Shown piece after piece: positions 13,591 through 63,612 of a stretch of 64,000 nt of DNA (within the stretch, counting starts at the first letter, position 1; each line of letters opens with the position of its first letter). The notes beneath the pieces are model-generated. The model saw nothing but the letters and a program-made list of their open reading frames with translations, ran no database searches and was not told the origin of the DNA. The translations under genes and the position numbers were made by a program. The stretch is from Thermoanaerobaculia bacterium. Its GTDB lineage: Bacteria; Acidobacteriota; Thermoanaerobaculia; Gp7-AA8. Where the stretch lies: the NCBI GenBank assembly GCA_036380735.1, contig DASVEE010000025.1:3041-67040 (forward strand). The letters run 5' to 3'.

Positions 13591-13601
13591 AGTTTGCCGT
13601 A

Positions 13602-18354: not shown

Positions 18355-18412
18355 CGGGACCATAGGTCTCATTCGTCTATGGGTCCAATTCGTCCCGTCC
18401 CATCGTTACCCC
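18355..18412. repeat. short degenerate ATAGGAC-family hairpin
   Basis: GGGACCATAGGTCTCATTCGTCTATGGGTCCAATTCGTCCCGTCCCATCGTTACCCCC between convergent genes; shares ATAGGTC / ATTCGTCCC / CCATCGTT termini with the family. Confidence 0.5.
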
Positions 18413-24291: not shown

Positions 24292-24375
24292 TCGATAGGA
24301 CGCAGCCTCAAACCCGCGGAGCGCCTGGTCCCATCCGTCCTATTCGTCCCATTCGTCCTATCCGTCCTATCGTCA
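24292..24375. repeat. ATAGGAC-family element (short left arm)
   Basis: GTCGATAGGACG - ~25-nt loop - GTCCCATCCGTCCTATTCGTCCCATTCGTCCTATCCGTCCTATCGTCA; the terminal TCA is the TGA stop of the gene at 24373..25662. Confidence 0.75.
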
Positions 24376-28012: not shown

Positions 28013-28145
28013 CATAGGACGAATAGGACCGATAGGACCGATGGGACGAATAGGACCTATAGGACGGATAGGACCTATCGGTCTCGGGTGGGCGGGGCCC
28101 CATTCGTCCTATAGGTCCTATAGGTCCTATTCGTCCTATCGTTCC
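28013..28145. repeat. ATAGGAC-iterated palindromic element (copy inside the cytochrome operon)
   Basis: Seven forward units CCATAGGACGAATAGGACCGATAGGACCGATGGGACGAATAGGACCTATAGGACGGATAGGACCTATCGG - loop - CCCATTCGTCCTATAGGTCCTATAGGTCCTATTCGTCCTATCGTTCC. Right arm overlaps the 3-prime end of the 23-haem cytochrome gene. Confidence 0.9.
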
Positions 28146-30592: not shown

Positions 30593-30766
30593 AACCGATA
30601 GGACAGATGGGACCGATGGGACCTATGGGACATGGGACCAATGGGACCTATAGGACCTATAGGCCTGCGGACCCTGGCACTTCGTGGGTGGAAGGGGGCC
30701 TACCTATGGGTCCCATCGGTCCCATCGGTCCCATAGGTCCCATTTCCCATCGGTCCCATTCATCCA
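30593..30766. repeat. ATGGGAC/ATAGGAC-iterated palindromic element
   Basis: AACCGATAGGACAGATGGGACCGATGGGACCTATGGGACATGGGACCAATGGGACCTATAGGACCTATAGG - ~38-nt loop - CCTATGGGTCCCATCGGTCCCATCGGTCCCATAGGTCCCATTTCCCATCGGTCCCATTCATCC; in a divergent intergenic region. Confidence 0.9.
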
Positions 30767-36228: not shown

Positions 36229-36262
36229 GGGACGGATAGGACGGATAGGACGGATGGGACTG
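36229..36262. repeat. half ATAGGAC-family element (left arm only)
   Basis: GGGACGGATAGGACGGATAGGACGGATGGGAC followed by CTTGCGGCGTTGCTGCG, which also occurs in the loop of the copy at 36941..37061; no recognisable right arm. Confidence 0.6.
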
Positions 36263-36319: not shown

Positions 36320-36607
36320 ATGAGCGCTTTGATCATCGTCGACATCGAAGTCACCGATCCCGTGCGGTATGAGGACTACAAGCGCCTCGCCTCGGAGTCC
36401 ATCGCGGCGCATGGCGGGCGTTATCTGGTCCGGGGCGGCGCCAGCGAGGTGCTCGACGGTGACTGGACGCCGCGGCGTCTCGTCGTGCTGCAGTTCGACT
36501 CCGTCGAGCAGGCGAAGGCGTGGCGCGCTTCGCCCGAGTACGCCGAGGCGAAGAAGGTGCGCGAAGGATGCGCGCGCTCGAACATGGTGGTCGTCGAAGG
36601 CATGTGA
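36320..36607 (+). CDS. DUF1330 domain protein
   Basis: 95 aa; strong match to DUF1330 family pattern (IVDIEVTDP..YEDYKRLA...HGGRYLVRGG..EVLDGDWTPRRLVVLQF.S.EQAKAW..SPEY.EAKK.R...A..NMVVVEG). Confidence 0.85.
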   Translation: MSALIIVDIEVTDPVRYEDYKRLASESIAAHGGRYLVRGGASEVLDGDWTPRRLVVLQFDSVEQAKAWRASPEYAEAKKVREGCARSNMVVVEGM

Positions 36608-36895
36608 GCGGTTTGGATCGCCACGCGAGCGGTTTTTCGGCTTACGCAGGCGGTTTGGAGCGCCGCGCGAGCGGTTTTGCGGCTCACGCGAGCGGTTTTG
36701 CGGCCCATGCGAGCGGTTTTTCAGCTCGTGCGAGCGGTTTTTTCGGCTCACGCGAGCGGTTTTTCAGCTCACGCGAGCGGTTTTGCGGCTCACGCGAGCG
36801 GTTTTGCGGCTCACGCGAGCGGTTTTTCGGCTCACGTGAACGGTTTTTCGGCTCACGCGAGCGGTTTTGTCGACTACGCGAGCGGGTTTGTCGCA
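36606..36895. repeat. tandem array, about 13 copies of 22-bp unit CACGCGAGCGGTTTTTCGGCT
   Basis: GAGCGGTTTTTCGGCTTACGCAG/GCGGTTTGGAGCGCCGCGC/GAGCGGTTTTGCGGCTCACGC/... repeated head-to-tail; each unit carries a T4-6 tract, so T-tracts recur every about 22 bp. Begins at the stop codon of the DUF1330 gene. Confidence 0.9.
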
Positions 36896-36940: not shown

Positions 36941-37061
36941 GGAATCGGACGAATCGGACAAATAGGACGTATAGGCGTGCGGACCCTGCGGCGTTGCTGC
37001 GGGTGGGTGCGGTCCTATCTGTCCCATTCGTGCTATTCGTCCCATAGGTCCTATCGTTCCC
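36941..37061. repeat. ATAGGAC-family element adjoining the 22-bp array
   Basis: GGAATCGGACGAATCGGACAAATAGGACGTATAGG - loop containing CCTGCGGCGTTGCTGCG - GGTCCTATCTGTCCCATTCGTGCTATTCGTCCCATAGGTCCTATCGTTCC. Confidence 0.85.
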
Positions 37062-40100: not shown

Positions 40101-40755
40101 GCGGCGCTTCCTGTACAACACGCGCATCGAGTACCTGAACCGCCGCGGACGGCCGGAGCACCCCGAGGTGCCGCTGCTGCGCGTCACCGACCACGCGAAC
40201 CTGGTCTACCGCAAAGGGCCGCTGGCGATGTACGCCCTGCGCTACTACATCGGCGAGGAGCAGCTCAATGCCGCGCTACGCCGGCTCGTGGAAAAGCATG
40301 GCTCCGGCGAGCCTCCGTACGCGACGACGCGCGATCTCTACCGCGAACTGAAACTCGCGACGCCTCCGGAGTACCACTACCTGCTCGAAGATTTCCTGGA
40401 GACGATCACGCTCTGGAGACTGCGCACGACCGCGGTCACCGCGACGCCTGCCGCCAACGGCACGTGGCGCGTCACGATGGACGTGGACGCGCACAAGCTG
40501 CGCGCCGACGGGAGCGGCAAGGAGACGGAGGTGCCGATGCACGACTTCGTCGACATCGGTGTCTTCGGCCCCACCACGAATGTGAATGAGCTCGGCGAGG
40601 AGCTGTACCTCCAGAAGCACCGCATCCGTTCCGGAGCGCAGCGCATCACGCTGACGGTGAAAGGCAAACCGGGGAAGGTGGGGATTGATCCGCACCTGCA
40701 CCTGATCGACCGCAACTGGATGGACAACGTGCGGCGCATCAGCGGGGTGAAATAG
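37138..40755 (+). CDS. ABC-2-type permease domain fused to M1-family (aminopeptidase N-like) zinc metallopeptidase
   Basis: 1205 aa; TTG start; N-terminal ~550 aa with 10-12 TM helices (ABC-2 permease-like); C-terminal gluzincin domain with HEIAHQWWG ... E about 20 residues later; TAG stop at start of adjacent repeat. No cognate ATPase gene adjacent. Confidence 0.8.
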   Translation: MPLKLLEIFRFELDFRMRRPATWLLLLIFVGLSFFAAKGLLIDEAQRAGDLYANGPAGIAVTHVFVSMIGMIVSAALFSGAALRDLETRMHPLFATSPITKTDYLGGRFAGALLVNLLLATVVPFALMVALRPELVSPELLGPFRAASFVQPYLFLLLPNIFFTGTVLFAVAVLTRRSLPVFATAVVLFIGGLLVEEIVAEQLGRGGLASLLDPFGFTALSELWEFWTTHERNTQPVRFEGSLVWNRLLWFGAGVLVLAFTRYRFRMDLYEARGRRRGAKVVVEEEASVPVRLDAIPVAPSFGPGTRLRQMLSVARESFRALVLTRDFLLISVALFILVLLVGQTMSDNFGVPFWPLTQFIAPLLGGFFPAMAISLLTAFYAGELVWRERDNGLADIADANPVPGWALFAGKFAALALMLTALQGVMMLSGMLLQAFAGYFRFEPALYLKIVFGLQLTEYLLLAALAMLVHVLVNNKYFGHLLVVLCYLFMVFGRRFGIAHNLLLYGGDGGWVYSDVSGFGPFMEAVVWFRLYWTGWAVLFAVLASLLWIRGRDRGLRKRLRLVRLRFNRGAALATAAAVLLIVSVGGYIYYNTNVLAGYLTPYAAGELRAEYERRYGKFERAAQPTVRGTKLHVELYPERRVVDVRGTYTLLNATAQPIRAVHLFLNPEVENRAVSFDRPSRVAIADDKLGHRTYELASALAPGESLEMQFALRFAPRGFPNNDPNTSVVRNGTYFDHNGGRRTNHRRWFPLVGYQPTRELSAARARREHGLPPRPLARSLDEASSVHDSAGRESITFEAVIGTDAKQLAVAPGTLRRTWMQNGRRYFHYAHDRTVKNSFAIFSADYAVHRELWNDVQIELFHHPTHTFNVPRFARSARASLDYYTKNFGPYPHKHVRIAQFPRYANLAHAYPGTISYAETTGWLTRIDESRHFDLASMTVAHEIAHQWWGFQVMPAAVEGGPTIAEVLSQYSALMVVEKIYGPEMVRRFLYNTRIEYLNRRGRPEHPEVPLLRVTDHANLVYRKGPLAMYALRYYIGEEQLNAALRRLVEKHGSGEPPYATTRDLYRELKLATPPEYHYLLEDFLETITLWRLRTTAVTATPAANGTWRVTMDVDAHKLRADGSGKETEVPMHDFVDIGVFGPTTNVNELGEELYLQKHRIRSGAQRITLTVKGKPGKVGIDPHLHLIDRNWMDNVRRISGVK

Positions 40756-40909
40756 GGCCAATGAACGGATAGGACCGATAGGACGAATAGGACCTATAGG
40801 ACGAATAGGACCTCTGACACTTCCGCGCGTGCCGGGCTGCGACCGTCGCGCAGCGGGGTGGGTGGGGTCCCATTCGTCCTATCGGTCCTATCTGTCCTAT
40901 CGTTCCCCC
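40752..40909. repeat. ATAGGAC-iterated palindromic element
   Basis: AATAGGGCCAATGAACGGATAGGACCGATAGGACGAATAGGACCTATAGGACGAATAGGACC - ~50-nt loop with internal CTGCGACCGTCGCGCAG palindrome - GTCCCATTCGTCCTATCGGTCCTATCTGTCCTATCGTTCC. Confidence 0.9.
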
Positions 40910-44038: not shown

Positions 44039-44142
44039 GACCGACGACGAATAGGACGATGGGACAAACCGCAGCCGTTAGCCGGCGTGCTGCTGTCCTA
44101 TAGGTCCTATTCGTCCTATTCGTCCCATTTGTCCTATCGTCA
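44027..44142. repeat. ATAGGAC-iterated palindromic element between convergent genes
   Basis: CAGGACGAATAGGACCGACGACGAATAGGACGATGGGAC - loop - GTCCTATAGGTCCTATTCGTCCTATTCGTCCCATTTGTCCTATCGTCA; left end supplies the TAG stop of the peroxidase gene, right end the TGA stop of the minus-strand M1-fusion gene. Confidence 0.9.
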
Positions 44143-48662: not shown

Positions 48663-48753
48663 GTCCCTCTGTATACGGGCGACGGGGCGCGCGGTGTACA
48701 GGGTGAGGGGCGGTTGGTACGAACGGTCGGATTCCGGGGGTAAAGGTGGCGGG

Positions 48754-48838
48754 GACAGGACGGATGGGACGAATAGGACGGATGGGACGGATGGGCCTCC
48801 GGTGAGTCCTATCTGTCCTATTCGCCCTATCCGTCATC
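48754..48838. repeat. ATAGGAC-family element
   Basis: GACAGGACGGATGGGACGAATAGGACGGATGGGACGGATGGG - short loop - GAGTCCTATCTGTCCTATTCGCCCTATCCGTCATCG. Confidence 0.85.
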
Positions 48839-49303: not shown

Positions 49304-50521
49304 TCACAACTCGTAGTCACACCACATTTCCCCCACTTTGAACGGCCGGTCCACCTGATCCAACGCGTCGCTTTGGGCGTAACGGTTCCCAACCCGTTCC
49401 TTCACCGCATCCACCAGCTTGGGATACGGCACCGGGAAGTGGCCGCGGTTGAACGACTTGACGGTGTCCGTGGACGCCATCGCCACGACGCCTTTGGCGT
49501 TCATCAGGTCGAGCGCTCCGTGCGGCGTGGCGTTGTGGCTGCCGTGGTGGCCGACCTTGTAGAAGCTGATGTCGCCGAGGATCGACTCCCAGTCGGCTTC
49601 CCACGACTTCCAGTTGCCCCATTGCGCGTCGCCGGGGAACAACAGCGTCTTGCCGCGGTACTGCAGCAGCAGCGAGAGACTCGTGTTGTTGAGGTAGTTG
49701 TCGACCGAGAGCGCGAGCGCCTGCAGCGGGATCGCGCACTGCTGCACGAGCAGCTCGCGATACGCCTCGTCGAGCACCGGCGTGCTGTCGTTCCAGCGGT
49801 CGCCGAAGGGGAGGAGGTTGTCGGTGGTGACCTGGCCGTTTTCGTCGAGCCCGAACAACTGCGAGTCGGGCGGATGCATCTTGCTGAGGAACGACGTGTC
49901 GGTCGACGGCGCGAGCACGCGCACGGTGAGTCCCTTGATGCCGCCCGCATCGGTGAGGACGTCGCCGCCTTTGAGGTACTTCGTTCGGCTCTTGTCGCCG
50001 AAGCCGTCGCGGAGCAGCGCCAGCGCCTTCGCGTTGTTGCCGGTGGAGGAGCGCCCCTTCGCGCCGAGCGCGTTGAGCGTGACCCACTCGATGAGCGGGT
50101 CCGGCGGCGCGCCGTCCGCCGCAACCCGAGTCATGTGCGCATCGAGCAGCGACGCCAGCGCGGCCGCTTTGGCGTGCAGCTTCTTCGCGGCCGGATTGCT
50201 GAGATCCTCGAGCCACGGCATCCACACCTCACCGACTTCGAAGCGGCTGAACCGCTCCGCCTCGGTACCAAACCCGCTGATGTGATCCGCATGCGCGTGC
50301 GTCGCGACGATCACGTCGAGCTTTCCGCCGGTCTCTTCCTCGATCGCCTCGACAGCTTCCGCGAGTCCTTTGAACTGGCTCTGCGAGTGGACGCCGCAGT
50401 CGATCAGGATGTGCTGCGCTTTCGATCCGGAGCCGATAGTGACGAGGAAGCAGTCGCCCATACCGACGCGATACATCCGGACGCGCAGCTTCGCACCGCT
50501 GGTGTTCTTCTTCACGGCCAT
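49304..50521 (-). CDS. MBL-fold metallo-hydrolase
   Basis: 405 aa; HxHxDH motif VIVATHAHADHISG, further conserved His/Asp (KVGHHGSHNA); no signal peptide; 1-nt gap from upstream peptidase gene. Confidence 0.8.
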   Translation of the reverse strand: MAVKKNTSGAKLRVRMYRVGMGDCFLVTIGSGSKAQHILIDCGVHSQSQFKGLAEAVEAIEEETGGKLDVIVATHAHADHISGFGTEAERFSRFEVGEVWMPWLEDLSNPAAKKLHAKAAALASLLDAHMTRVAADGAPPDPLIEWVTLNALGAKGRSSTGNNAKALALLRDGFGDKSRTKYLKGGDVLTDAGGIKGLTVRVLAPSTDTSFLSKMHPPDSQLFGLDENGQVTTDNLLPFGDRWNDSTPVLDEAYRELLVQQCAIPLQALALSVDNYLNNTSLSLLLQYRGKTLLFPGDAQWGNWKSWEADWESILGDISFYKVGHHGSHNATPHGALDLMNAKGVVAMASTDTVKSFNRGHFPVPYPKLVDAVKERVGNRYAQSDALDQVDRPFKVGEMWCDYEL

Positions 50522-50522
50522 G

Positions 50523-52370
50523 TCAGCACCCCCGATGAATCGCCGACAGGTGCAGCGCCGGCGGAGTGACGTCGGTCAGATAGTTGGTGAACGGTGACGC
50601 GGCGAGCGCGGTCTCGACGAACGACTTCTGCCGCTTGCGCCGCGACTTGGAGGTGAGGTTCTTGTACACGATCATCGTCGCCGTGCCGGCCGTGTCGAAC
50701 ACGACGGTCGCACCTCCCTTGAAGCGCTTCTCCGTGTCGCCCGGCTCGAGCTCCGCGTGCCCCACGATGTGCGCGATGAACTCGACCTGCGGACGCTGGC
50801 TCCCGCCGCGGACGACCATGTTCACCGACCGCACCGCGCGCGGAATCCGCGGAATGTCGCAGTTGCAGGTCGCCTTCGTGTGCGTGTCGTCTTCGCAGAG
50901 ACCGAAGGCGAAGGGATGCGCGCGCACGACCTCCTCCAGCTTGTTGCAGTTGTCGTCGAAGAACTTGTTCGGCTCGAGGAGGTCGAAGCAAAGCCCGGGA
51001 CAGGCGGGCGTGTCCGGCGGGGCCTTCTGCCACAGCAGCGACTCCTCGGCCAGCGAAGTGACGTCGTCCGGCACGATGCCGCGCGCGCGGAACGCCTGGA
51101 TGAAGGCGTCGCGATAGTCGTGATCGTCGCTGCGGTACAGCTCCGTGTCGGCGGTGATGAGCGCGCGGAGGAAGTCGCCGAAGGTGATGTCGACCGGCGG
51201 ACAGTAATCGATGGCGCGGATGCACATCGTGCAGAAGTGACTCGCGACTTTCGACGCTTCCTTGGCCAGCCTCGCGGCGATGTCGGGATGGATCTCGTCC
51301 GAGCCGCTCGACACCGCGCGCGCGAGGCGGATCAGGTCGGCCGTGCGGTGCATGAAGGAGCTGAAGAACGCGTCGAACACGGCGGCGACGAGCACTGCTC
51401 CGCGCTCGTGCGCTTCCGTCGCCTCGGCCAGCGCTCGCGGATTGGGAGCGACGCCGAGGGCCGAGCGGAGCGCGGCGCGCCGGCCCATCGATTCGCCGAA
51501 CTGGCGCGCCAGGTCGAGGAGCGGGTTCCCTTCCGGCATCTCGCCGACGATGAAGATCGGGCTGTCGGGGTCGCGGTCGGCGACGGCGCCGCGCGGCGCG
51601 AGGTCGAAGCGGTGCAGCACCCCGCCGGAGCGCTGCAGCGTGTCGCGCACGACGTCCTCGAAGCGGAAGTGCTGGAACAGCGCGACGATGTCCGCGAAGG
51701 CCTCATGGAACCCGAGCACGTCGGGGTTCGTCGCCTCCATGAACGTGTCGCGGAGCGTGTCGACGATGGCGTGCGTCGTCTCGTGCGCGATGATGTCGTG
51801 CGAGAGGCAGGTGAAGACGGTGCCGGCGGGCAGTCCGCTGCCGGCTTCCTCGCTCGACGCACGGAAATAGCCGAAGAGCAGCGCGCCGAGCTCACGCGAG
51901 TAGTACGCGTTCGGCTCGTACATCGCGTGCGGGAAGATGCGCAGCACGTTGCGCGAGCCGGCCGCGTCCTGGAACCGGAAGAGGATGTCGCGTCCGAGGG
52001 CACGCTCGAAGATGTTGATCGTCTCCATGGCCACGGCGTAGACCATCTGCTGGTGAAAGCGTGGATCGGATTCGCTCGGCGCGAGTCCCCCCTCCACGAG
52101 CGCGGCGGGGGAGTTGAGGTCGACCGGCTTGTAATAGAGGTTGTTCGTGGCGTCGAAGTCGATGACGTGGATCTGCTGCCCTTCGAGCCGCTGCTCGAGG
52201 TCCTCGTACTTGACCCGGACGGTCATGTGATTGCCGAGGCGGCGGCCACGCCCGGGATCGAAGGCGTACACGCGCAGCGCACGATACGGCGGCTTATCGA
52301 CCTCGGGTGCGAGGTCCGGTAGCGGGTTCGCGGACATAGGAATCTCCTCTGAGGACGACGACTCGTACAA
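50523..52370 (-). CDS. leaderless thermolysin-like (M4-type zincin) metallopeptidase with Cys-rich C-terminal region
   Basis: 615 aa; no signal peptide; HEXXH IIAHETTHAIVD followed about 25 aa later by GFHEAFADIVALF (matches M4 NEAxSDIFG third-ligand motif); C-terminal Cys clusters (CTMCIRAIDYCPP, CPGLCFD, CEDDTHTKATCNCD). Confidence 0.65.
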   Translation of the reverse strand: MYESSSSEEIPMSANPLPDLAPEVDKPPYRALRVYAFDPGRGRRLGNHMTVRVKYEDLEQRLEGQQIHVIDFDATNNLYYKPVDLNSPAALVEGGLAPSESDPRFHQQMVYAVAMETINIFERALGRDILFRFQDAAGSRNVLRIFPHAMYEPNAYYSRELGALLFGYFRASSEEAGSGLPAGTVFTCLSHDIIAHETTHAIVDTLRDTFMEATNPDVLGFHEAFADIVALFQHFRFEDVVRDTLQRSGGVLHRFDLAPRGAVADRDPDSPIFIVGEMPEGNPLLDLARQFGESMGRRAALRSALGVAPNPRALAEATEAHERGAVLVAAVFDAFFSSFMHRTADLIRLARAVSSGSDEIHPDIAARLAKEASKVASHFCTMCIRAIDYCPPVDITFGDFLRALITADTELYRSDDHDYRDAFIQAFRARGIVPDDVTSLAEESLLWQKAPPDTPACPGLCFDLLEPNKFFDDNCNKLEEVVRAHPFAFGLCEDDTHTKATCNCDIPRIPRAVRSVNMVVRGGSQRPQVEFIAHIVGHAELEPGDTEKRFKGGATVVFDTAGTATMIVYKNLTSKSRRKRQKSFVETALAASPFTNYLTDVTPPALHLSAIHRGC

Positions 52371-54258: not shown

Positions 54259-54296
54259 TTTGCGCAAGTGCGCAACAACAGTGTTGTTTCTTGCGT
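54259..54296. promoter_or_regulatory. palindromic operator-like site in divergent promoter region
   Basis: TTGCGCAAGTGCGCAACAACAGTGTTGTTTCTTGCG: TTGCGCAA self-complementary octamer plus AACAACAG/CTGTTGTT inverted repeat, in the 254-bp region between the Cys-rich gene (minus) and the 1148-aa gene (plus). Confidence 0.4.
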
Positions 54297-54469
54297 GGCG
54301 ACTGCGACGTCCAGCCTCGGTCTTATGTCCTATCCGGCCCGCCGTCTGCGTCCACGCACGGTGGCCGTCCACATGGCGGTGGTGAAATGAGGCCGCGAAA
54401 AAATCCGGGACGCGGATGTAGAATTCCGCACCTCTGAAAACGAACGGGACCTGGCGGTGGGAGGTTCGG

Positions 54470-57400
54470 ATGTCTGTTGTGCGTGGTCGTGTGCTCGTGG
54501 CGCCTTCTGGCAGAGGCATCGCGAACCTGATCGTCGAGGCTTTCGACGTGGAAACGAAAGACCCGTCCGTGCCGAGGCGGCGGCTGGGATCGGGCGAGAC
54601 GAACGAGAAGGGCGAGTTCCGCATCGACTACACCGTCGATGCTGCAGACACGTCGGGTGTCGGTCTGATGATCGCGGTCTCGCCGCCCGAACGTCCGGAC
54701 CGGACCACCGTGCCGCTGTATATGTCGCGTGAGGTTCGCCAGCGCGCGGCGGCGGTGGAGGTCTTCCTCATTACGCTCACCGAGGGCGATCTCGAAAAAG
54801 GAGGCGGCGTGCCCGTCGTGCCGCCGCCGGGAGATCCGGAGCCGGCGTCGATGGCGGCCGCGCGTCTGCTGGCCGATTCGCGTCGCAGCCTGGACCTGGC
54901 GCGCGCCCGCACGGACGCGGAGCGGATGAAAGTCGATGAGGCGCGTGCGGTGACGGCCGCGTTCCGCGGGGAGTTCGCGCCCGCGCTGCAGCGCAGTCTG
55001 AGCAGCGTCAGCGAGGAACAGGCGCGCGCGGATACGTTCGTCGTCCCCGGAGCATCCGTCGCGGCGGTCTCTCGCGGCGCGATGACGAACGATCTCTTCA
55101 ATGTCATCAACAATCCGCAAAGACGCGCGCCGATGAAGGCGCGCATCGCGCTGACCGGCCAGCAGCTCACGGACCTCCGCGCGCGGCTGGGAGCAGGCAA
55201 TACGATCTCCGCGCACGCTCTGCATGAAGTCCTGGGAGGCCCTCCGCCTTCATCGCAGTCGAGCTATCTGCGCGAGGATCCGCTGGCGATCGTCTGCCGC
55301 GAGATCACCACGGACGAGCGCACCGCTGCCGCGGCTCTCGACGTGCCGCTTCCGGCCTCGACGCCTCCACCGGCGCCGCCGGATGGTGACGTCCCCGGCA
55401 CTGGCGTCGACGTGCTGGAAGCGGGTGACGTGAAGCGTTACCTGGCGCGGCTGGTGGACACGATGACGTCGCCCGAGGAGGGCGTGCTCGCGGGGCTGGA
55501 GCCACGCGCCACGCGCGGCATCGTCGACGCGCAGGTGCAGGGTCTCGCCTTCCAGCCCAGTCCTGCCGACACGACGGCGTACTACGACTTCCACAATCTT
55601 CAGGTCGCATTCCGGCACGTCTGGCAGGAGGCGGTGGATGAAGGCGTGCTCACTCTGGCCGAGGCAGCGTACGACGAGATCGTGATGGGCGGCGGCCGGC
55701 CGGCTCCGCAACCGGGCACGCCTCCGCTGCAGTCGCTGGTCAGCGAGGCGCAAGCCGTCAAGCGCGCGCGCGCCGGCACGCAGAGCGTCGGCTCCGCGCT
55801 GCGCAGCGGGTTGCTGCCGGGCTTCATCGACAATCTGCTCCATCCCGACAAGGTTCTCGACCCGCCGGCGGCGGAGGCTCTGCCGTCCCTCGTGAACGAG
55901 CTCACGCAACGTTTGCAGGAGCCGTACGCCTTCACCACCTTTGCCGCCAATCGCCAGGAGCGGAGCGTGAACTTCGGCATTCGCGTCACCTACCAGCAGG
56001 AGTGGAAGCCGCTGGAGTACCAGGCCGGCCGTCTGGCCAAGACCATCACGCTCGCTCCGAAGGAAGTGCGCAAGTACAGCAAGACGGTGAAGCGCCATCG
56101 CAAGCGCGCGGAGAAAGAGGTCGAGAAGCACGTCAGCATCCGCAAGGACGAGTTGAGCCAGACCTCGCGCGTGGAGCAGGAGATCATCCGCAAGGCCACC
56201 GCCAAGACGCATTTCGAGATCGGCTCCGAGACGTCGTCCGGCAACCCGGAGCTCACGCCGACGTCGACGGTGAAGACGTCGTTCGAGCGCGAGGTCGGCC
56301 AGGTCTCGGACAACGTCAAGAAGTCCTTCAACGAATCGGTGCGGAAAGCGGTGCAGGAGCTCACGAACGAGCTCACCGTGGAGATCAACCGCGAAGAGAC
56401 GGAGGATGTCGAAGAGACCGAGTCGGGTGAGATCGCCAATCCGAACGACGAACTGGCGGTGACGTTCCTCTTTTACGAGCTGCAGCGCCGCTACCGCATC
56501 GCCGAGCGCATTCATCGCATCATGCCGGTCGTGCTGGTGGCGCAGGAGATGCCCAAGCCGCACGAGATCAACGAGGCCTGGCTGATCAGTCACGACTGGA
56601 TCCTGCGCCGTGTGCTGCTCGACGATTCGTTCGCGCCGGCGTTGAGCTACCTCTCCAGCCAGGTGGTCGGAGACCAGGTCGCGCTGTCGGAGATGAAGAC
56701 CAATATCTCCCAGCAACGCGCGGCCATTCAGGAGCTGAAGCAGCAGTTGAAGGTCGTTCGGCAGCGTGCATCCACGTACCGCAATCTGCTCGAGCGATCG
56801 CTGCTGCACGCCGCCGAGAAGAGCAAAGACAGCGACGATGGTTGGTTCAGCGGCATCCCGATCGTCGGCGGCGCCGTCGAGCTGGTCGAAGACGCCATCG
56901 ACGCCGTCGGCGATTTCATCAACCCCGACATGCCCGAGGTCGGCCCCAGCCGGCAGGACACGCTCAAGGAAACGATCGAGCGGACCATCGATGAGGAGCG
57001 CGATCTGCTGATGCGTCTCGAGCGCGAGGTCACCGCGCTGAACGCGCTGACCGAGGCCTACGCGAAGCTCCTGGCCGAGAACTACAACCAGCGCACCCAG
57101 ATCCTGCGCCTGCGCACCCACGTGAAGCAGAACATCCTCTATTACATGCAGGCGATCTGGAATCACGAGCCTCCCGACCAGCGCTATCTGCGCCTGCATG
57201 AGACGCCGGTGCCGGTGTTCGTGGGCGACCAGACCTATCGCTTCGCCAGCGTCGACCCGGTGCCGGGCTCGATGAGCAATCCGCCGCATCGCAAGCTGGG
57301 CGTGGACACGCTCGATCCGACACAGGTTTTCGAGGCCGAGGTCTTCTGCAACCTCTCCACGCACGAGACGCGACCGCTCTCACGCGTCGCCGATCTCGAC

Positions 57401-57916
57401 AACCTCCTCGGCTATTTCGGCAACTACATGATCTTCGGCCTGAAGGAATCGAACGCGTTGACGGACTTCATGATGGAGCCGTACCTGCTGCGCGGCTTCG
57501 ACGAGCTGGTCGATCCCGACGACCTCGGCAACTGGAGTCTCGACGAGTTCGTCGACTACGTCGTTTGTCTCCGCGAGCGCATGACCGCCGAACAGTTCGA
57601 GCTCGTCAAGCCCGAGCTGCGCGCGCAGTACGAGCGTCTGATTACCGCTCCGCATCGAAACGGGGACGTGATCACCATTCCCACCGGCTCGCTGTTCATC
57701 GAGGCGCTGCCGGCCACGTCGTCGCTCATCGAGAAGTTCAAGGCCATCCACCGCGCGGTGGACGTGAAGAAGGCCCAGGCCGAGGCGCGCCACGCGGAGA
57801 TCCGGAACCTCTGGATGGTCGACCGGCTGCTGCACGACGAGCGCGAGGATCCCGACATCGACAAGAAGATCATCATCGAAGGCGCCGTCGGACCGGTCCT
57901 CCCGGTGGACGAGTAG
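54470..57916 (+). CDS. large uncharacterised protein (1148 aa; N-terminal CarboxypepD_reg/transthyretin-like fold, central Lys/Glu-rich coiled-coil region)
   Basis: GGGAGG SD 7 nt before ATG; no signal peptide or TM; N-terminus MSVVRGRVLVAPSGRGIANLIVEAFDVETKDP...GEFRIDY; central KEVRKYSKTVKRHRKRAEKEVEKH... charged block; no Walker motifs; clean protein-like composition over 3.4 kb while the opposite strand gives only an Arg-rich ORF. Confidence 0.75.
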   Translation: MSVVRGRVLVAPSGRGIANLIVEAFDVETKDPSVPRRRLGSGETNEKGEFRIDYTVDAADTSGVGLMIAVSPPERPDRTTVPLYMSREVRQRAAAVEVFLITLTEGDLEKGGGVPVVPPPGDPEPASMAAARLLADSRRSLDLARARTDAERMKVDEARAVTAAFRGEFAPALQRSLSSVSEEQARADTFVVPGASVAAVSRGAMTNDLFNVINNPQRRAPMKARIALTGQQLTDLRARLGAGNTISAHALHEVLGGPPPSSQSSYLREDPLAIVCREITTDERTAAAALDVPLPASTPPPAPPDGDVPGTGVDVLEAGDVKRYLARLVDTMTSPEEGVLAGLEPRATRGIVDAQVQGLAFQPSPADTTAYYDFHNLQVAFRHVWQEAVDEGVLTLAEAAYDEIVMGGGRPAPQPGTPPLQSLVSEAQAVKRARAGTQSVGSALRSGLLPGFIDNLLHPDKVLDPPAAEALPSLVNELTQRLQEPYAFTTFAANRQERSVNFGIRVTYQQEWKPLEYQAGRLAKTITLAPKEVRKYSKTVKRHRKRAEKEVEKHVSIRKDELSQTSRVEQEIIRKATAKTHFEIGSETSSGNPELTPTSTVKTSFEREVGQVSDNVKKSFNESVRKAVQELTNELTVEINREETEDVEETESGEIANPNDELAVTFLFYELQRRYRIAERIHRIMPVVLVAQEMPKPHEINEAWLISHDWILRRVLLDDSFAPALSYLSSQVVGDQVALSEMKTNISQQRAAIQELKQQLKVVRQRASTYRNLLERSLLHAAEKSKDSDDGWFSGIPIVGGAVELVEDAIDAVGDFINPDMPEVGPSRQDTLKETIERTIDEERDLLMRLEREVTALNALTEAYAKLLAENYNQRTQILRLRTHVKQNILYYMQAIWNHEPPDQRYLRLHETPVPVFVGDQTYRFASVDPVPGSMSNPPHRKLGVDTLDPTQVFEAEVFCNLSTHETRPLSRVADLDNLLGYFGNYMIFGLKESNALTDFMMEPYLLRGFDELVDPDDLGNWSLDEFVDYVVCLRERMTAEQFELVKPELRAQYERLITAPHRNGDVITIPTGSLFIEALPATSSLIEKFKAIHRAVDVKKAQAEARHAEIRNLWMVDRLLHDEREDPDIDKKIIIEGAVGPVLPVDE

Positions 57917-57920
57917 GGAA

Positions 57921-59727
57921 GATGGGCGACGGAATCACCGACGTCGAGCGCGGAGTGTCTGTCGCGCCGAAAGGGCTCGCCAGCGGTGAGGCGTGGCTGG
58001 CCATGGTCGAGCGCATGATGCAAATCGTCACAGGCGGGCAGCGCTGGGACTACTCCGTGCGTCACGACGTGGAGAAGGATATCGAGGAGTCGAGACGCAC
58101 CGGGATCACGCCCAGGCAGATGTTGGAAGGCCGCCGCCAGTTCTCTACCGATACGGAACGTCTCTACTATCTCCGCTTCCTGCTCGAATACGAGATCGAA
58201 GGAGGCGGGTGGATTCAACTCGGGATCTACTACCGCGGACCCAAGGACCCGGCCCGAATCGCCGCGGCCATGGCCGACTACGAGATCAAGCGCCTCCAGT
58301 CGGTGGCCGAGCAGGCGGTGCCGGTGCCGCCTCCTCTGCAGCGACAGCGAAGCGTGCGCGGCCTCGACACCGATTGGGAGCGAGGTGCGGCGCAGCGGGA
58401 ACGAGAAGAATATGAAGCGTTTCTGATCGAGGTGGCCCGCCAGGAAAGTGCGGACGAAGCACGTTCACGAGATCTTCAAGCGCGGTACGGTGGCAGGACG
58501 GGCACGAAGAGCATGCTCGATTACTACGTCGGCGACCCGGTCGTGTATGCCGCCGACCGAGCGATCAAGGCGGTCCCCGGAATGGTCAGCCTGGCGTTGG
58601 ATTTCGTTCCCGTCGTCGGTCAGTTGAAAGCCGCCCTGGAAGCGATCAGCGGCCGCGACCTGATCACCGGCCGGCATCTCGCCGACTGGGAGCGCGGCCT
58701 CAATATCCTTCTCTCGGTTCTGCCGTCGGCGAAAGCGGCGTTCCGCGGAGGCAAAGCGGGGCTCGCGGCGCTGGCCAAAGCGACGGCGCAGAGTGGCAAA
58801 CCGGCCGCCGAGGTCTATCGCGCCGCGAAGGGCGCGAGCCGGCTCACCGACGCGGAGGTGAAGGCGGCGAAGGTCCTTCGCAACGGCAAGCCCGTCAACG
58901 CGGCCGCATTCGACAAGGTCGCTGGCAGCATCGACGAGATGATGGGGACGCCGAAGGTCGGCCGCACCGAGATGTACCGCGTCGCGGCCGGCGAGATCCA
59001 CGATGGGCGCATGGTCACCAGCTCCATCGCCAGCTCACCGGTGAGCGTGCCGCCGAAGCCCGTCGGCCGCCCGGTGACGCCGACGCGAACGACGCCCCGC
59101 GTCGCCACGACGCTGGCGAACGCCGGTGTCCTCCCCGAGGCCATCGCGGCGCTGAACCGGGCCGGCGTGGCGGTGAACAAGGTATCCAGATTCCTGACCA
59201 CGCCGCGGGTGAGGGACTTCGTCAACACCTTCCATCAGAGTCCCGGCTTTCATCTGATCGTCGAGGATCTCGCCAAGGGCGCCACGAAGAAGAAAGGCGC
59301 GCTGTTCATCATCGACTTCGTCAATGACGCGAAGAACAAGATCGATCCGAAGCTGGCCATGTTCGAGATGGACGTGGGAATTACCAAGAGCCCGCTGCGG
59401 GACCGTTCCGCGCGGGTGACCGATCTCGTGGTGACCCAGGGGGGGCGCGCGTTGAACTACGAGTTCAAGGCGTACTCGATGGCCTCACTCAACAAAGCGC
59501 TCGCCGACCCGCAGAAGATCCTCCAACTGGTCAAGGACGTCGCCATCCACGGGCGCCGGAACATCAAGTGGGTGTTCGATTCCGCGGAGATCTCGGAGTC
59601 GTACCTCCACAAGAAGTTCACCGCCATCATCAATGCCGATCCGTTTCTCAAGAGCCGGTTCAGCGGCAAGGCGGACGAACTGGAAGCCATGCTGGACGAA
59701 CTGCTGATTCTTTACCCGAAGAAATAG
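57921..59727 (+). CDS. uncharacterised protein (602 aa) with pre-toxin-TG-like segment and candidate PD-(D/E)xK-like C-terminal domain
   Basis: ATG 5 nt after upstream stop (GGAAG SD); segment PGMVSLALDFVPVVGQLKAALEAISGRDLITGRHLADWERGLNIL resembles the pre-toxin TG module of polymorphic toxins; C-terminal FHLIVEDL ... VTDLVVTQGGRALNYEFKAY fits E ... D ... E-x-K spacing; no signal peptide. The listed ORF extends upstream into the previous gene. Confidence 0.7.
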
Positions 59728-59744
59728 TCTTCAGCCTCGTAGCG

Positions 59745-59788
59745 GTACGAACGGGACGATTCGCCTCGTCCCATTCGTCCCATCATCC
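59745..59788. repeat. short ATAGGAC-family-derived hairpin / bidirectional terminator
   Basis: GTACGAACGGGACGATTCG-CCTC-GTCCCATTCGTCCCATCATCC between convergent stops (59727 and 59792). Confidence 0.5.
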
Positions 59789-59791
59789 GCT

Positions 59792-62700
59792 TCACCGCCC
59801 CGCCGCCCTCCGCCGCCCGCCCGATTCGTCGATGGCCACCGCCGGCGCCAGGGTCCATTCGTACGAATTACCGGAGGCATCTTCGAAGCGCACCGTCAGG
59901 TCGATTGCCGCCGCTGTTGATTGGGACGCCGCCATCAGGTCCGCGCGGAACGTGGAGCCCAGCCCCGGGTGCCCGAGGGCGGCTTGCTCCGCGGCGGTGT
60001 TGGCGATCTCGGTGGCGATGTGCGTGGTGCGCAGTGGGAGCCACGCGGACGTGCCGTGGGGGCGCCACTGCACCGTGAGTGATTCCGTGCGGACCGGCGC
60101 GAACGTCAGCTCCTGCCGGTCTCCAGAGGGGATGAGATCCATGGCGGAGAACTGCAGCGTGCCGCCCTGGCCGCGGACGAGAGACGTGCGGTTGCGGCCG
60201 CCCGCGTCGAGCAGCTGGAACGTCGTCAGGAGCGGCGGCGCGACGTCCTCCAGCGTCGTATCGAAGCGCGCGTGCAGCAGCGCGCTGCCCGCGATGCCGC
60301 GCAGCGTGAACGGCTTCGTCACCTCGTAGTCGTAGCGTCCTGGCGGTACGTCAATGTTGCGCCAATCCGCGGCGCGCGGTGCGTCCACGACGGTGCCCGT
60401 GCTGTCGCGGAGGACGGCCCGCGAGCCGGTCATTTCGCCGAGACGATCCTCGCCGAGCGCACCGCGGTACTCCGGACGCATGACCAGCAGCCACAAGGCT
60501 CGCGTGACGATCGGCTGCACGTACCAGAGCCCCTCGCCGAAGACGAGCGTCTCGTTCTCCCTGGCCACATACGTCGCCGGCGTGGCGGTCTTGTAAGCCC
60601 AAGGCATGATGCCGGCCTCCGTCCTGCGGAGGCGCGGAGACTCGAGCAGCACCCACGGACGGACGGCCGCCGAACCTTTGATCTGCGCCTTGCCGGTGGC
60701 ACTCATCGCCGGATGACGGCTCGCGGTCAGATACAGCGTTCCTTCCCATTCGGAACCCGTCACGGCCTCCGCGAGTCCCCACGACGAAGCCGACGATTCG
60801 CGTGTGCCGTGCCACAGCCAGCCCGTGAGGATGACGGCCGTCGGTTGCACCGCGCCCTCCGGCACCTTCATCCGGATCGGCGTCCGCGACCAGTCGCTTT
60901 TCTCGATCGTGAGTTTCTGCGATGCGGCGAGTCCCGTGAGCGGCGCGTATTGCCCGCCGTACGCGCGCTTGCGATCGAGCTCGTCGTTGCACTGCTCGAA
61001 CGTCAGCAATGTGAAGCGATCGGAGATCGCGGATCCGAGGAATTTGCCTCCGGTCGCGGACACGATGGTGACGCCGTTCACGGTCTGCGAGGGGCCGATC
61101 AGCGCGAGGTACTGCTGGCAACGCCGCCCTTCCCGGATGTCGGCGCCCTTCTCATCCTCGGCGCTCAGCTCGAGCTCGTGCACCGCGGAGGCGCGGCGTA
61201 CCGGGATGGTCGTCGAGCCCTGGACGACCTGCTGTTCGACGACGATCACCGGCTGCTCGCCCGCCATGCCGGGCAGCGGAAACAGCTGCACGTCATACGT
61301 GCCGTGCGGCAGCAGCACCGAGCTGCGTCCTCGCGATTCCGTCGGGACGTGTCCCACGGTCGTGGTGCCGATCCCGAAGAGCAGCGCCTCGTACATCTCC
61401 GGACCGTCGTAGTCGATCGTGACCGCGGCGCCCTTGACGAACGCCCACGGCACGCGCAACGGCACCGCGCCGCCGGCGATCTCGATCGCACCGGAGTAGG
61501 AGAGCGAGTCGCTCTCCGGCACCGGTACGGCGGCGCTATCGACGTCGACGGTGAGGTGGACGTCGCGCGACGCTCCTGGCTCCAGCACCACCGTAGTGAC
61601 ATCGAGCGTGACGCCGATGCCCGCGTGCGGCGACTCCGCGGTGAGCGTGAGCGTCCGCGCCACCGTCCCGTGGTTCACCAGCGTCACCGTGCTTCGCGAC
61701 AGCCAGTGCGCCTCGGCGCTGCTCGCGCCGCCGAGACTGAGCACGCTCTGCTGCACGATCACATCCGCCGTCGCGGCGCGCAGCGCATCGACGCGACCGG
61801 CTCCTTCAGCCATCGCGTTTTTGGTGAGACCGACCGCCGTGCCGACGATCGCGGCCTTGATGTGCGCGGCGGGCCAGTCAGGGTGGATCGCGCGCAGGAG
61901 CGCCGCGATCCCGCTCACGTGAGGCGTGGCCATCGACGTGCCGCTCATCGGCTCCGTGCCGCCGCCGATCGAGGCGGACATGATGTTCTCACCCGGGGCG
62001 ACGACTTCCGGCTTGATCTCCAGCGACTGCACGATCGGCCCTTTCGACGTGAAGGACGCCAGCTGATCGTCGATGGACGAAGCGCCGACCGTGATCGCCG
62101 ACGGCGCGTTACCCGGCGATCCGATCCGCTGATAGCCGCCGTCGTTGCCGGCGGCGATGCAGAAGATCACGCCGGCCGCGCTCGCGCGCTCGACGGCCTG
62201 CGTCAACGGCGAGTCGGGATCTCCCGGTGCGCCGAGGCTCATGTTCGCCACGTGGACGTGATCGGCGGGGTTGCCGTCCTGGTTCGGATCGGCGGCACGC
62301 TCGACGCCGGCGACGATCGTCGACTCGCGACCGTGGCCCTCTTCGTCCAGCACCTTGTACGCGAGGAACGTGACTTCTGGCGCCACACCCGTGATGCCGC
62401 CGCCGTTGCCGCCGACGATCGCGGCGACGTGCGTGCCGTGGCCGTCGTCGTCCATCGGATCGGCGTCTTTGTTGATGAAGTCATAACCGCCGGCGACGCG
62501 CTGCCCCGGCCCGAATGCGCCGCCGAGCGCCGGGTGGCGGTAGTCGACGCCGGTGTCGAGGATCGCCACGACGATGTTCCTGCCGCGCGTCCCGAGCTGC
62601 GACCAGACCTCCGGCGCGCGAATCTTCGGCACGCTCCGCTCGAGCGACGCGCGCAGCGTGCGGTCGGGATGCACGGCGCGGACGTAGTCGAGCTGCGCGA

Positions 62701-63109
62701 TGCGCTCGATCGCGTCCGCCGAGACGGTGAGCGCCGCACCGGAGTAGACGCGCGAGAAGCGCTGCGTGATGCGTCCCTCCGTCGTTGCTGCCTGCGTGCT
62801 CACGCCCGGACGCCGCGCGAGCTCACGCTCGATGTTCGTGAGGTCGCGCTCGAACGTGGCGAAACGATCGGCGAACGCGCGCTGCGCTTCGCGCTTCGCG
62901 GACGCGCTGCCGTTCGCCGCGCGCTCGAAGAGCGGCGTGTCCCGAAACTGCACGATCACCGGCACGCGCCCGTTCTTCGGAACCGATATGGCCGAGGTGA
63001 TCGTCTGCCCATCGTCCCTGTGCACCTGCACGAGGGGAGTGCTGCCTCCCGCGATGGCAACCGTAGCGACGAGGCAGAGAAGAAAAGCCGTGGAGATCCA
63101 CCGATTCAT
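59792..63109 (-). CDS. secreted subtilisin-like (S8) serine peptidase with I9 propeptide and long C-terminal extension
   Basis: Signal peptide MNRWISTAFLLCLVATVAIAGG (alternative TTG start at 63148); catalytic D (VAILDTGVD), H (HGTHVAAIVGG), S (GTSMATPHVSG); about 650 aa beta-rich C-terminal region. Confidence 0.85.
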   Translation of the reverse strand: MNRWISTAFLLCLVATVAIAGGSTPLVQVHRDDGQTITSAISVPKNGRVPVIVQFRDTPLFERAANGSASAKREAQRAFADRFATFERDLTNIERELARRPGVSTQAATTEGRITQRFSRVYSGAALTVSADAIERIAQLDYVRAVHPDRTLRASLERSVPKIRAPEVWSQLGTRGRNIVVAILDTGVDYRHPALGGAFGPGQRVAGGYDFINKDADPMDDDGHGTHVAAIVGGNGGGITGVAPEVTFLAYKVLDEEGHGRESTIVAGVERAADPNQDGNPADHVHVANMSLGAPGDPDSPLTQAVERASAAGVIFCIAAGNDGGYQRIGSPGNAPSAITVGASSIDDQLASFTSKGPIVQSLEIKPEVVAPGENIMSASIGGGTEPMSGTSMATPHVSGIAALLRAIHPDWPAAHIKAAIVGTAVGLTKNAMAEGAGRVDALRAATADVIVQQSVLSLGGASSAEAHWLSRSTVTLVNHGTVARTLTLTAESPHAGIGVTLDVTTVVLEPGASRDVHLTVDVDSAAVPVPESDSLSYSGAIEIAGGAVPLRVPWAFVKGAAVTIDYDGPEMYEALLFGIGTTTVGHVPTESRGRSSVLLPHGTYDVQLFPLPGMAGEQPVIVVEQQVVQGSTTIPVRRASAVHELELSAEDEKGADIREGRRCQQYLALIGPSQTVNGVTIVSATGGKFLGSAISDRFTLLTFEQCNDELDRKRAYGGQYAPLTGLAASQKLTIEKSDWSRTPIRMKVPEGAVQPTAVILTGWLWHGTRESSASSWGLAEAVTGSEWEGTLYLTASRHPAMSATGKAQIKGSAAVRPWVLLESPRLRRTEAGIMPWAYKTATPATYVARENETLVFGEGLWYVQPIVTRALWLLVMRPEYRGALGEDRLGEMTGSRAVLRDSTGTVVDAPRAADWRNIDVPPGRYDYEVTKPFTLRGIAGSALLHARFDTTLEDVAPPLLTTFQLLDAGGRNRTSLVRGQGGTLQFSAMDLIPSGDRQELTFAPVRTESLTVQWRPHGTSAWLPLRTTHIATEIANTAAEQAALGHPGLGSTFRADLMAASQSTAAAIDLTVRFEDASGNSYEWTLAPAVAIDESGGRRRAAGR

Positions 63110-63177
63110 GCGCCGATCGTCCACCTGCACGGCCTGTTGCAAATGCAACCGAACAGGAAACTGCGGCCGGGCAGGGG

Positions 63178-63478
63178 AACGATAGGACGAATGGGACGGA
63201 TAGGACGAATGGGACGAATAGGACCGATGGGCAAACCTGGTGTCATCCCGAAGCCCCCGTATGGGGGCCGGGCGGGGGAGGGGGCTGAGGGATCTGTGTG
63301 GGGGAACGTGACACCACTTCTACGCCGCGATTCCCCCACACAGGTCCCTCACCGCCCTCCGCCGCCCACGCCCCCATACGGGCAGTTCGGGATGACACGC
63401 TTTATGCCTGTTGGACCTACTGTCTTTGTCCCATCCGTCCTATCCGTCCTATAGGTCCTATAGGTCCTATCGTCCCCC
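63178..63478. repeat. complex ATAGGAC-family element with nested internal palindromes
   Basis: Outer arms AACGATAGGACGAATGGGACGGATAGGACGAATGGGACGAATAGGACCGATGGG (63178-63231) and TTTGTCCCATCCGTCCTATCCGTCCTATAGGTCCTATAGGTCCTATCGTCCCCCC (63425-63478); inside, GTCATCCCGAAGCCCCCGTATGGGGGC pairs with GCCCCCATACGGGCAGTTCGGGATGAC, and CTGTGTGGGGG pairs with CCCCCACACAG. Confidence 0.85.
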
Positions 63479-63492
63479 CGTCGCTCTCCGCG

Positions 63493-63612
63493 ATCCGGCT
63501 GATTCGGGATGACACGAAGGGGATTGGACCTACTGTCTTTGTCCCATCCGTCCTATCCGTCCTATAGGTCCTATTCGTCCTATCGTCCCCCGACTCACTC
63601 CCCGCGATCCGG
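63493..63612. repeat. tandem duplicate of the right half of the preceding element
   Basis: TTCGGGATGACACG...GGACCTACTGTCTTTGTCCCATCCGTCCTATCCGTCCTATAGGTCCTAT.CGTCCTATCGTCCCC followed by CGCGATCCGGCT repeats the block at 63383-63500 almost exactly. Confidence 0.8.

Follow-up and report, generated by a model that had tools for sequence, protein, structure and literature searches.

Polymorphic toxins hold a central place in microbial conflict. To our knowledge, every well-understood class of these toxins relies on a known export route and on a cognate immunity protein. Conserved carrier genes followed by a variable toxin gene are encountered in type VI secretion systems (T6SS), where VgrG or PAAR precedes the effector, and in extracellular contractile injection systems (eCIS) including the Photorhabdus virulence cassettes (PVC), whose toxins are of the DUF4157 type. 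Proteins carrying a pre-toxin TG (PT-TG) domain and lacking a known trafficking domain occur across monoderm and diderm phyla, and their export route is unexplained (PMC13483458, Pandoomain study). The PT-TG domain has been hypothesised to act as a cleavage substrate (PMC13483458). Here, we analyse two adjacent genes, ORF1 and ORF2, located in a stretch of 64,000 nucleotides, hereafter the window, of a Thermoanaerobaculia bacterium (Acidobacteriota; assembly GCA_036380735.1, contig DASVEE010000025.1, positions 3,041 to 67,040 of the forward strand). The locus is an autonomous, horizontally spread two-gene cassette associating a conserved protein of ~1150 amino acids (aa) with an exchangeable toxin-type protein. 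An initial annotation of the window, made from the letters alone, had described the pair as a candidate undescribed two-gene module, a view that our analysis upholds, and had missed its central feature, which is the conservation of the first gene against the hypervariability of the second.

ORF1 (54470..57916, plus strand) runs from an ATG to a TAG stop codon at 57914-57916 and encodes 1148 aa. ORF2 (57922..59727, plus strand) also starts with ATG and encodes 601 aa plus the stop codon. A Shine-Dalgarno-like GGGAGG (54459..54464, plus strand) is found 5 nt before the ORF1 start, and the 5-nt spacer GGAAG (57917..57921, plus strand) separates the ORF1 stop from the ORF2 start, a distance that suggests translational coupling; in most related loci, the corresponding gap is of -32 to +60 nt. 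The spacing, the GGGAGG and the size of ORF1 had been correctly reported, and the 602 aa previously attributed to ORF2 counted its stop codon. The GenBank model of ORF1 (HEX7151614.1, from a Thermoanaerobaculia metagenome-assembled genome) comprises 1122 aa and starts 26 codons downstream of 54470. The longer reading, which differs by the stretch 54470-54547, is preferred because the N-terminus is conserved across the family, homologues aligning to ORF1 from the first Met of the 1148-aa protein; an exact copy of this 1148-aa ORF1 is also present in a Logan assembly. As initially annotated, neither protein displays a signal peptide, a transmembrane segment or a nucleotide-binding motif: neither N-terminus resembles a signal peptide, hydropathy (Kyte-Doolittle means over 19 residues) peaks at 1.19 in ORF1 and at 1.65 in ORF2, and both Walker A and HExxH motifs are absent from the two sequences.

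The libraries offered no family for ORF1. Whether the query was ORF1 by itself or a profile built on 19 or on 102 sequences, only chance-level matches were obtained in Pfam, NCBIfam, PADLOC, PHROGs and the PDB sequences, which rules out a known family in these collections. A word-indexed search recovered just 19 relatives, and an exhaustive profile search extended the family to 2697 cluster representatives at E<=1e-3, with 878 of them at E<=1e-30. Almost all have 1100-1300 aa and align over most or all of their length. ORF1 is the first member recognised here of a large unannotated family. At one genome per species, 238 genomic matches were confirmed in 185,579 species, and 80 of these loci were kept for locus analysis. 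The family spans more than 12 bacterial phyla as well as the Archaea. The 80 loci belong to the Acidobacteriota, Bacteroidota, Myxococcota, Chloroflexota, Cyanobacteria, Gemmatimonadota, Deferribacteres and Dormibacterota, to the Alpha-, Beta-, Gamma- and Deltaproteobacteria, to the Planctomycetota (Brocadia, Scalindua), to Nitrospira, to the Actinomycetota (Nocardia, Mycobacterium, Streptomyces, Amycolatopsis) and to the Archaea (Methanophagaceae, Methanococcoides).

The family is also found on Sinorhizobium chromids and on one haloarchaeal plasmid, and a substantial match was obtained for 4 of 72,556 plasmids. In addition, 13 plasmids of Sinorhizobium medicae and Ensifer canadensis (H5-H17) carry only a 31-aa stretch, 87% identical to aa 879-909 of ORF1 (RLRTHVKQNILYYMQAIWNHEPPDQR...), which constitute its most conserved motif; these stretches could correspond to a divergent relative or to a gene remnant. 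Carriage of the family by phages or viruses was rejected, as no match was detected in 50,697 phage genomes (INPHARED) or in 2.9 million viral contigs (IMG/VR). Although these collections are devoid of the family, some cassettes adjoin a gene for the large subunit of a phage terminase or for an integrase of phage type (L091, 7971-9452; L008, 13763-14128; JGI 3300056388 contig of P0028, 8616-9998). Transposases, integrases, Tn3 or megaplasmids are encountered in the context of certain loci. No second copy of ORF1 was encountered inside the fetched loci. Fusions between ORF1 and a toxin were sought and not found: the checked sequences, including those with the longest C-terminal parts, stop at or just past an EDPDIEKK-type motif.

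The association of ORF1 with a downstream gene is nearly invariant. In 70 of the 80 loci, the stop codon of the ORF1 homologue is followed within 180 nt, and mostly within 60 nt, by the start of an ORF that lies on the same strand and encodes 150 aa or more. In nine others, the same-strand ORF starts 260-660 nt away, and the contig of the last locus ends too early to judge. Every homologue locus fetched individually likewise has a same-strand gene directly downstream. The pair therefore recurs in every related locus examined, well outside the genome in which it was noticed. One could still envisage two functionally unrelated neighbours, ORF1 being a structural or housekeeping protein, a reading compatible with the lack of direct evidence for an interaction and of a recognisable activity in ORF1. 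It is made highly improbable by the same-strand, short-gap pairing that ~79 of the 80 loci display across more than 12 phyla and the Archaea, where all other neighbours differ. A housekeeping role is moreover incompatible with the scarcity of the family, given its mere 238 matches among the species surveyed; neither ORF1 nor ORF2 could be related to a housekeeping family.

The downstream proteins, 280-1150 aa long, are not homologous as a set. Single-linkage clustering distributes them into groups of 23, 10, 3, 3, 3... members and 19 singletons, and their similarity is restricted to domains that are shuffled between proteins. A PT-TG block such as that of ORF2 was found by block search in 7 of 75 downstream proteins. 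Pfam toxin domains comprise PT-TG in four proteins, WHH in two, CdiA_C in two, Colicin-DNase in two and Ntox5 in one, and one matrixin peptidase was recognised as well. On the haloarchaeal plasmid, the gene following the ORF1 homologue is annotated in RefSeq as a pre-toxin TG protein. CdiA_C occupies the extreme C-terminus of the proteins in which it occurs, and one nuclease-like domain is N-terminal in four downstream proteins and C-terminal in four others. Identities to the window for ORF1 and ORF2 are 75 and 51% in L009, 46 and 29% in L008 (Streptosporangium) and 40 and 47% in L091; since the two genes do not co-diverge, these values fit an exchange of cassette parts. An N-terminal adaptor domain common to the downstream proteins was looked for and discarded, as a hidden Markov model (HMM) of ORF2 aa 1-150 matches only the closest relative. 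In L004, four consecutive 43-aa ORFs spaced by ~234 nt (15610-16442) lie directly downstream of the gene in toxin position and form a repeated mini-gene or a repeat array.

ORF2 itself is the better understood of the two proteins. The claim that the pair could not be assigned to characterised families holds for ORF1, for which no library match was obtained, and has to be abandoned for ORF2, whose aa 221-280 (58582..58761, plus strand) match the PT-TG domain PF14449 (E=4.7e-14; score of 52.6 bits, the cutoff being 23.5). The same domain is present in all 10 close homologues, and RefSeq/GenBank names ORF2 a pre-toxin TG domain-containing protein. Its C-terminal part (aa 428-601; 59203..59724, plus strand) is a candidate toxin domain of the PD-(D/E)xK type, in which alignments (A2, A8) show conserved residues E482, D501, E514-x-K516, Q535, D539 and W550. 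The pattern E482...D501...E514-x-K516...Q535 is kept in ten close homologues, and E482, D501 and Q535 are kept in three distant proteins as well. Profile searches with this domain gave no Pfam and no PDB match, and the proposal of a nuclease of the restriction endonuclease fold is based on the motif. The domain recurs in otherwise different proteins, being placed at the very end of those of L027 and L064 and at aa 797-928 of the 993-aa protein of L030.

On account of its PT-TG domain and of its C-terminal E...D...ExK motif, ORF2 can be classed as a polymorphic-toxin-type protein; it is the exchangeable part of the cassette. The region covering aa 157-342 shares 49% identity with a metagenomic protein that combines an N-terminal eCIS_core/DUF4157 domain with PT-TG. 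This relative does not adjoin an ORF1 homologue, which suggests that the N-terminal part of ORF2 sets the delivery partner. No LXG, WXG, PAAR, VgrG, TPS, DUF4157, MuF or PrsW trafficking domain was detected by Pfam in ORF2. The build of ORF2 is the modular one of polymorphic toxins, in which a context-dependent N-terminal part is followed by the pre-toxin domain and by a toxin domain that can be exchanged.

The architecture of ORF1 was examined on an AlphaFold2 (AF2) model obtained from a 61-sequence alignment, with a mean predicted local distance difference test (pLDDT) of 78.2 and a predicted template modelling score of 0.63; an earlier model derived from 19 sequences had reached a pLDDT of 60.6. 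Matches to known folds are confined to the N-terminal domain and to coiled coils. The first 104 residues (54470..54781, plus strand; strands at 2-104) form a transthyretin-like beta-sandwich matching transthyretin and 5-hydroxyisourate hydrolase (HIUase) in Foldseek with E ~4e-4 to 1e-3, a probability of 1.00 and a template modelling score, normalised by target, of 0.35-0.48 over ~110 residues. The fold announced by the initial annotation is thus borne out, and no sequence match to CarboxypepD_reg was obtained with Pfam. On some VgrG and PAAR proteins, transthyretin-like domains are the adaptors to which effectors bind. A long helix (aa 126-177) and a mixed alpha/beta region (aa 197-445) follow in the model.

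The central part of ORF1 (aa 487-691; 55928..56542, plus strand) is modelled as a core of very long beta-strands (500-551 and 638-691) that flank a charged helical hairpin (556-579 and 609-633). This hairpin corresponds to the Lys/Arg/Glu-rich block pointed out initially, which is real, and the core including it ranks among the best conserved regions in the family alignments. The strand core has no structural match in the PDB or in BFVD. Within the hairpin, the conserved loop at aa 581-606 (56210..56287, plus strand) presents a strict two-residue hydrophobic periodicity, with the consensus NFxLxAxGxFxIG..IxxxxxTxF in the family alignment, and is among the top windows for column-averaged hydropathy and beta-moment; its AF2 pLDDT is ~30. 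Because of this conserved periodicity, the loop is a candidate amphipathic beta-hairpin, which might insert into a membrane or pack within an oligomer.

A second arm is predicted at aa 732-898 (56663..57163, plus strand), where ~165 residues fold into an antiparallel coiled-coil hairpin whose Gly-rich and hydrophobic tip (785-824) is disordered. This tip (IPIVGGAVELVEDAIDAVGD) was considered as a PT-TG-like counterpart of VPVVGQLKAALEAISGRD in ORF2 and dismissed, no significant HMM match being obtained in either direction. The protein ends with a conserved alpha/beta domain and a terminal helix (aa 913-1121; 57206..57832, plus strand), recognisable in alignments and in the AF2 model and carrying the motifs GNYMIF, DPD, PTGSLFIEALP and HRAxDVKKxQAE; the pLDDT is mostly 85-97 for aa 913-1060 and ~70-83 beyond. 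Over the whole family, the N-terminal half of the protein is variable and the C-terminal half conserved, and one member bears a chitobiase/Fn3-associated insert.

No third component is conserved with the pair. In the window itself, only 65 nt separate ORF2 from the end of the convergent subtilase gene, with no immunity gene in between. The third genes of 44 loci are mutually unrelated and match no immunity family in Pfam, and direct comparison of two related CdiA_C toxins shows nothing conserved downstream of their stop codons, so that no immunity gene could be retained from either approach. All-against-all clustering of the flanking ORFs of 85 loci revealed no conserved flanking gene. The 95 immediate neighbours collected from 48 loci are heterogeneous, mostly housekeeping, with at most two members per Pfam family, and conserved accessory or secretion genes were accordingly rejected from both surveys, in which no linked apparatus of type V (T5SS), type VI or type VII (T7SS) secretion, eCIS or Tc was conserved. 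Since no flanking gene is conserved in the 85 loci, the divergently transcribed operon encoding Cys-rich and CarboxypepD_reg proteins, which the initial annotation had linked to the pair, falls outside the module; the closest relative has a different upstream gene, of 118 aa.

An alternative reading is that of an addiction or selfish module, in other words an oversized toxin-antitoxin (TA) system in which ORF1 would be a generic cage or antitoxin and the loss of the cassette would free the toxin, thereby stabilising the mobile DNA that carries it. The tight coupling of the genes with the putative neutraliser in first position, the lack of a separate immunity gene and the transposases, integrases, Tn3 and megaplasmids seen at some loci all speak for such a module. 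It would, however, require a single conserved protein able to neutralise toxins of dozens of unrelated folds, by a sequestration without precedent in TA systems, and proteins of 1150 aa and 300-1100 aa are far outside the TA size range. Type II TA features are lacking in the pair, which contains no helix-turn-helix, ribbon-helix-helix or AbrB domain in its 1148 and 601 aa. PT-TG and a modular toxin architecture are not TA features, and the very low number of plasmids with a substantial match, along with the absence from phages, adds to the difficulties. We consider an addiction module improbable.

The surroundings were also described initially as typical of a defence or conflict island. This layout is not supported: a few loci do adjoin CRISPR-Cas, abortive infection (Abi), TA or TIR genes, and most immediate neighbours in the 48 loci are housekeeping. 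In PADLOC-DB v2, neither ORF1 nor ORF2 has a match, and among 70 downstream proteins only two weak singletons were returned, none of them robust, so that PADLOC does not support these proteins as defence effectors. These results bear on a different scenario, that of an abortive infection or anti-phage pair, in which ORF1 would be an intracellular sensor or scaffold holding ORF2 as a latent effector and freeing or activating it upon infection, with degradation of nucleic acids and death of the cell; the coiled-coil arms and the variable N-terminal half of ORF1 would provide the sensing surface. This scenario accounts for proteins devoid of a leader, for the missing immunity and for a distribution independent of the cell envelope. 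It has to face, besides the PADLOC results and a neighbourhood without visible defence enrichment, the absence from ORF1 of any NTPase, nuclease or other signalling domain. The downstream domains are typical of secreted polymorphic toxins, and PT-TG is not known to occur in effectors of defence systems. Prophages often carry defence genes, and yet the family is missing from the phage genomes and viral contigs mentioned above. An anti-phage role is the main rival to the reading that we favour, conceivable although rather unlikely in our view.

The reading we favour, tentatively and at somewhat below an even chance, treats ORF1 as a generic carrier, or holder, and translocator of an exchangeable toxin that has no immunity protein. 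ORF1 would be an invariant, non-enzymatic scaffold of ~1150 aa composed of the transthyretin-like domain, the long-strand core and two protruding arms with flexible tips. ORF2 would be the pro-toxin, with its subfamily-specific N-terminal region, its PT-TG domain and its candidate PD-(D/E)xK nuclease. ORF1 would be co-translated with whichever toxin gene stands downstream, would oligomerise, bind the toxin and keep it harmless in the producer; if the toxin is held in this manner, no immunity gene would be needed. The complex would then leave the producer, for instance by lysis, and ORF1 would present or release the toxin to a target cell as a carrier or translocator, with the amphipathic loop and the tip of the coiled coil as membrane-active elements and PT-TG as the place at which cleavage liberates the toxin. 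The physical complex, the silencing of the toxin, its export and the membrane activity are the parts of this scheme that we infer; the pair itself, its conservation, the variability and toxin domains of the second gene and the lack of immunity or secretion partners are observed. The transthyretin-like domain, the chitobiase/Fn3 insert of one member, the amphipathic loop and the contrast between a variable N-terminal and a conserved C-terminal half are features of ORF1 that would fit an extracellular or membrane-active carrier. The toxin domains of the downstream genes and the N-terminal module swapped with respect to the eCIS-type toxin likewise favour a carrier, and so do the conserved pairing, the hypervariable second gene, the lack of co-divergence between the two genes and the absence of an immunity gene or of any other conserved partner.

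A number of points weigh against this reading. Neither protein has a signal peptide or a transmembrane segment, and there is no evident export route. It is hard to see how one delivery mechanism would operate across the envelopes of the diderms, monoderms and archaea that host the family. The N-terminal position of a nuclease-like domain in some downstream proteins is atypical for secreted polymorphic toxins, and no common ORF1-binding module was detected among these proteins, their interaction with ORF1 being itself a prediction. Beyond generic coiled coils, ORF1 has no structural match to a known pore-former or translocator. Finally, the proposed hairpin at aa 581-606 sits in a low-confidence part of the model, and distant members of the family do not retain the coiled-coil tip.

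Several further features of the window deserve mention. The initial annotation had placed the pair between an operator-like palindrome and a hairpin, and both elements exist. In the divergent intergenic region upstream of ORF1 (54260..54288), direct reading reveals an 8-bp palindrome, TTGCGCAA, at 54260-54267 and a perfect 7-1-7 palindrome, AACAACA-G-TGTTGTT, at 54274-54288, which the inverted-repeat tool did not flag at its settings. They make a possible operator, which may or may not belong to the module, and a search of this region gave no sigma-70-like promoter. On the other side, a hairpin (59744-59781, no strand assigned) with 16-nt arms, 88% complementary, and a 6-nt loop lies between ORF2 and a convergent S8 subtilase gene that ends 65 nt past ORF2. 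As it resembles a 9-nt-period repeat scattered through the intergenic regions of the window, this hairpin is not specific to the module; it is probably a copy of a genome-wide element resembling repetitive extragenic palindromes (REP) and may serve as a terminator too. In the two Thermoanaerobaculia genomes, the gene for a large S8 subtilase (window 59792-63148, minus strand, 1118 aa; L005, 6078-9257) converges on the cassette. It is not kept with the cassette elsewhere; a neighbouring protease could bear on pre-toxin processing.

The 9-nt-period repeat (unit ~GTCCTATNC, complement GATAGGACG) occupies at least 13 stretches, mostly intergenic and often arranged in adjacent inverted blocks able to form long hairpins, and looks like a REP-like genome-wide element. 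It was located at 801-905, 20913-20961, 21205-21241, 24328-24374, 28014-28139, 30594-30759, 36230-36260, 37011-37057, 40751-40813, 44095-44141, 48753-48795, 63181-63224 and 63428-63588, and probably at 59744-59781. Two tandem arrays have a 21-nt period, too short for CRISPR: 9.2 copies at 20962-21154 and 13.6 copies of GAGCGGTTTTGTCGGCTCACGC at 36606-36893, just upstream of a gene for a 1205-aa protein (37138-40755). At 49304-52370 on the minus strand, a 405-aa protein of the metallo-beta-lactamase (MBL) fold is encoded 1 nt downstream of a 615-aa protein with an HETTH (HExxH) motif and no Pfam match. In the MBL protein, ~100 aa at the N-terminus match PADLOC PDLC03854 (listed as LmuA, 8e-23) and, far below the cutoff, NCBIfam Avs1a (7e-16); these two genes may form a separate two-gene conflict module. 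The region 13600-18400, with a GC content of 0.61 against ~0.67-0.70 and no ORF passing the high-GC3 filter, could represent foreign DNA, a non-coding stretch or an atypical one.

Among described systems, polymorphic toxins are those with which the cassette shares most. PT-TG in ORF2, an exchangeable C-terminal module, the WHH, CdiA_C, Colicin-DNase and Ntox5 domains of downstream genes and the shuffling of domains are common to both (Zhang, Aravind et al. 2012, PMC3482391), whereas three of the features that define canonical systems of this kind are wanting in the cassette, which has no trafficking domain, no immunity gene and no linked secretion apparatus (PMC3482391). The nearest known groups for ORF2 are the groups termed 'PT-TG singleton' and 'PT-TG toxin' (Becerra Soto et al., bioRxiv 10.1101/2025.10.01.679605; mSystems 2026, PMC13483458), and the conserved 1150-aa upstream gene is described in neither PMC3482391 nor PMC13483458. 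More generally, no description of the ORF1 family or of its link to toxins was found in the open-access literature, an earlier description elsewhere being possible.

The arrangement of a conserved carrier gene followed by a variable toxin gene is reminiscent of T6SS and eCIS/PVC loci, and in the case of eCIS the likeness extends to the close PT-TG relative of ORF2 that bears an eCIS_core/DUF4157 domain. However, ORF1 resembles VgrG, PAAR, Hcp, sheath, tube or baseplate proteins neither in sequence nor in fold, and no multi-gene apparatus is present. T6SS antibacterial effectors furthermore carry immunity genes, and the ORF1 family occurs in monoderms and archaea. Large coiled-coil proteins that are conserved and paired with a variable nuclease-type partner, with a sporadic and horizontal distribution, are also found in Lamassu (LmuA/LmuB) and Avs-type sensors. 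In contrast to these, ORF1 has no ATPase or SMC head and no PADLOC match, and the cassette effectors bear domains of polymorphic toxins, not of the defence type. The closest known systems include as well the binary (AB-type) toxins, the ABC/Tc toxins and the coiled-coil pore-formers, as exemplified by anthrax protective antigen (PA), TcA/TcB-TcC, YaxAB/XaxAB and IpaB. ORF1 has no structural or sequence similarity to the PA, aerolysin, MACPF or TcA/TcB/TcC folds, and the likeness to Tc toxins resides in the carrier-plus-cargo arrangement.

From these comparisons, the cassette emerges as polymorphic-toxin-related, with a realistic chance of representing a categorically new way of deploying toxins. 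It is conceivable, though we would not count on it, that ORF1 is a single-protein toxin-handling machine of a new fold, with which bacteria of many phyla and archaea cage polymorphic toxins lacking immunity before delivering them or letting them go in response to a trigger. If true, caging or delivery by ORF1 would constitute a mode of polymorphic toxin deployment independent of T5SS, T6SS, T7SS, eCIS, Tc and MuF and of the envelope type. Whichever model applies, the role of ORF1 would give a function to a large dark family of 2697 cluster representatives, and working out the cassette would explain how nuclease toxins are tolerated without immunity proteins. The downstream genes provide a catalogue of dozens of new toxin domains. 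With respect to the PT-TG proteins that have no known trafficking domain or secretion system, the cassette supplies a testable partner for one group of these toxins.

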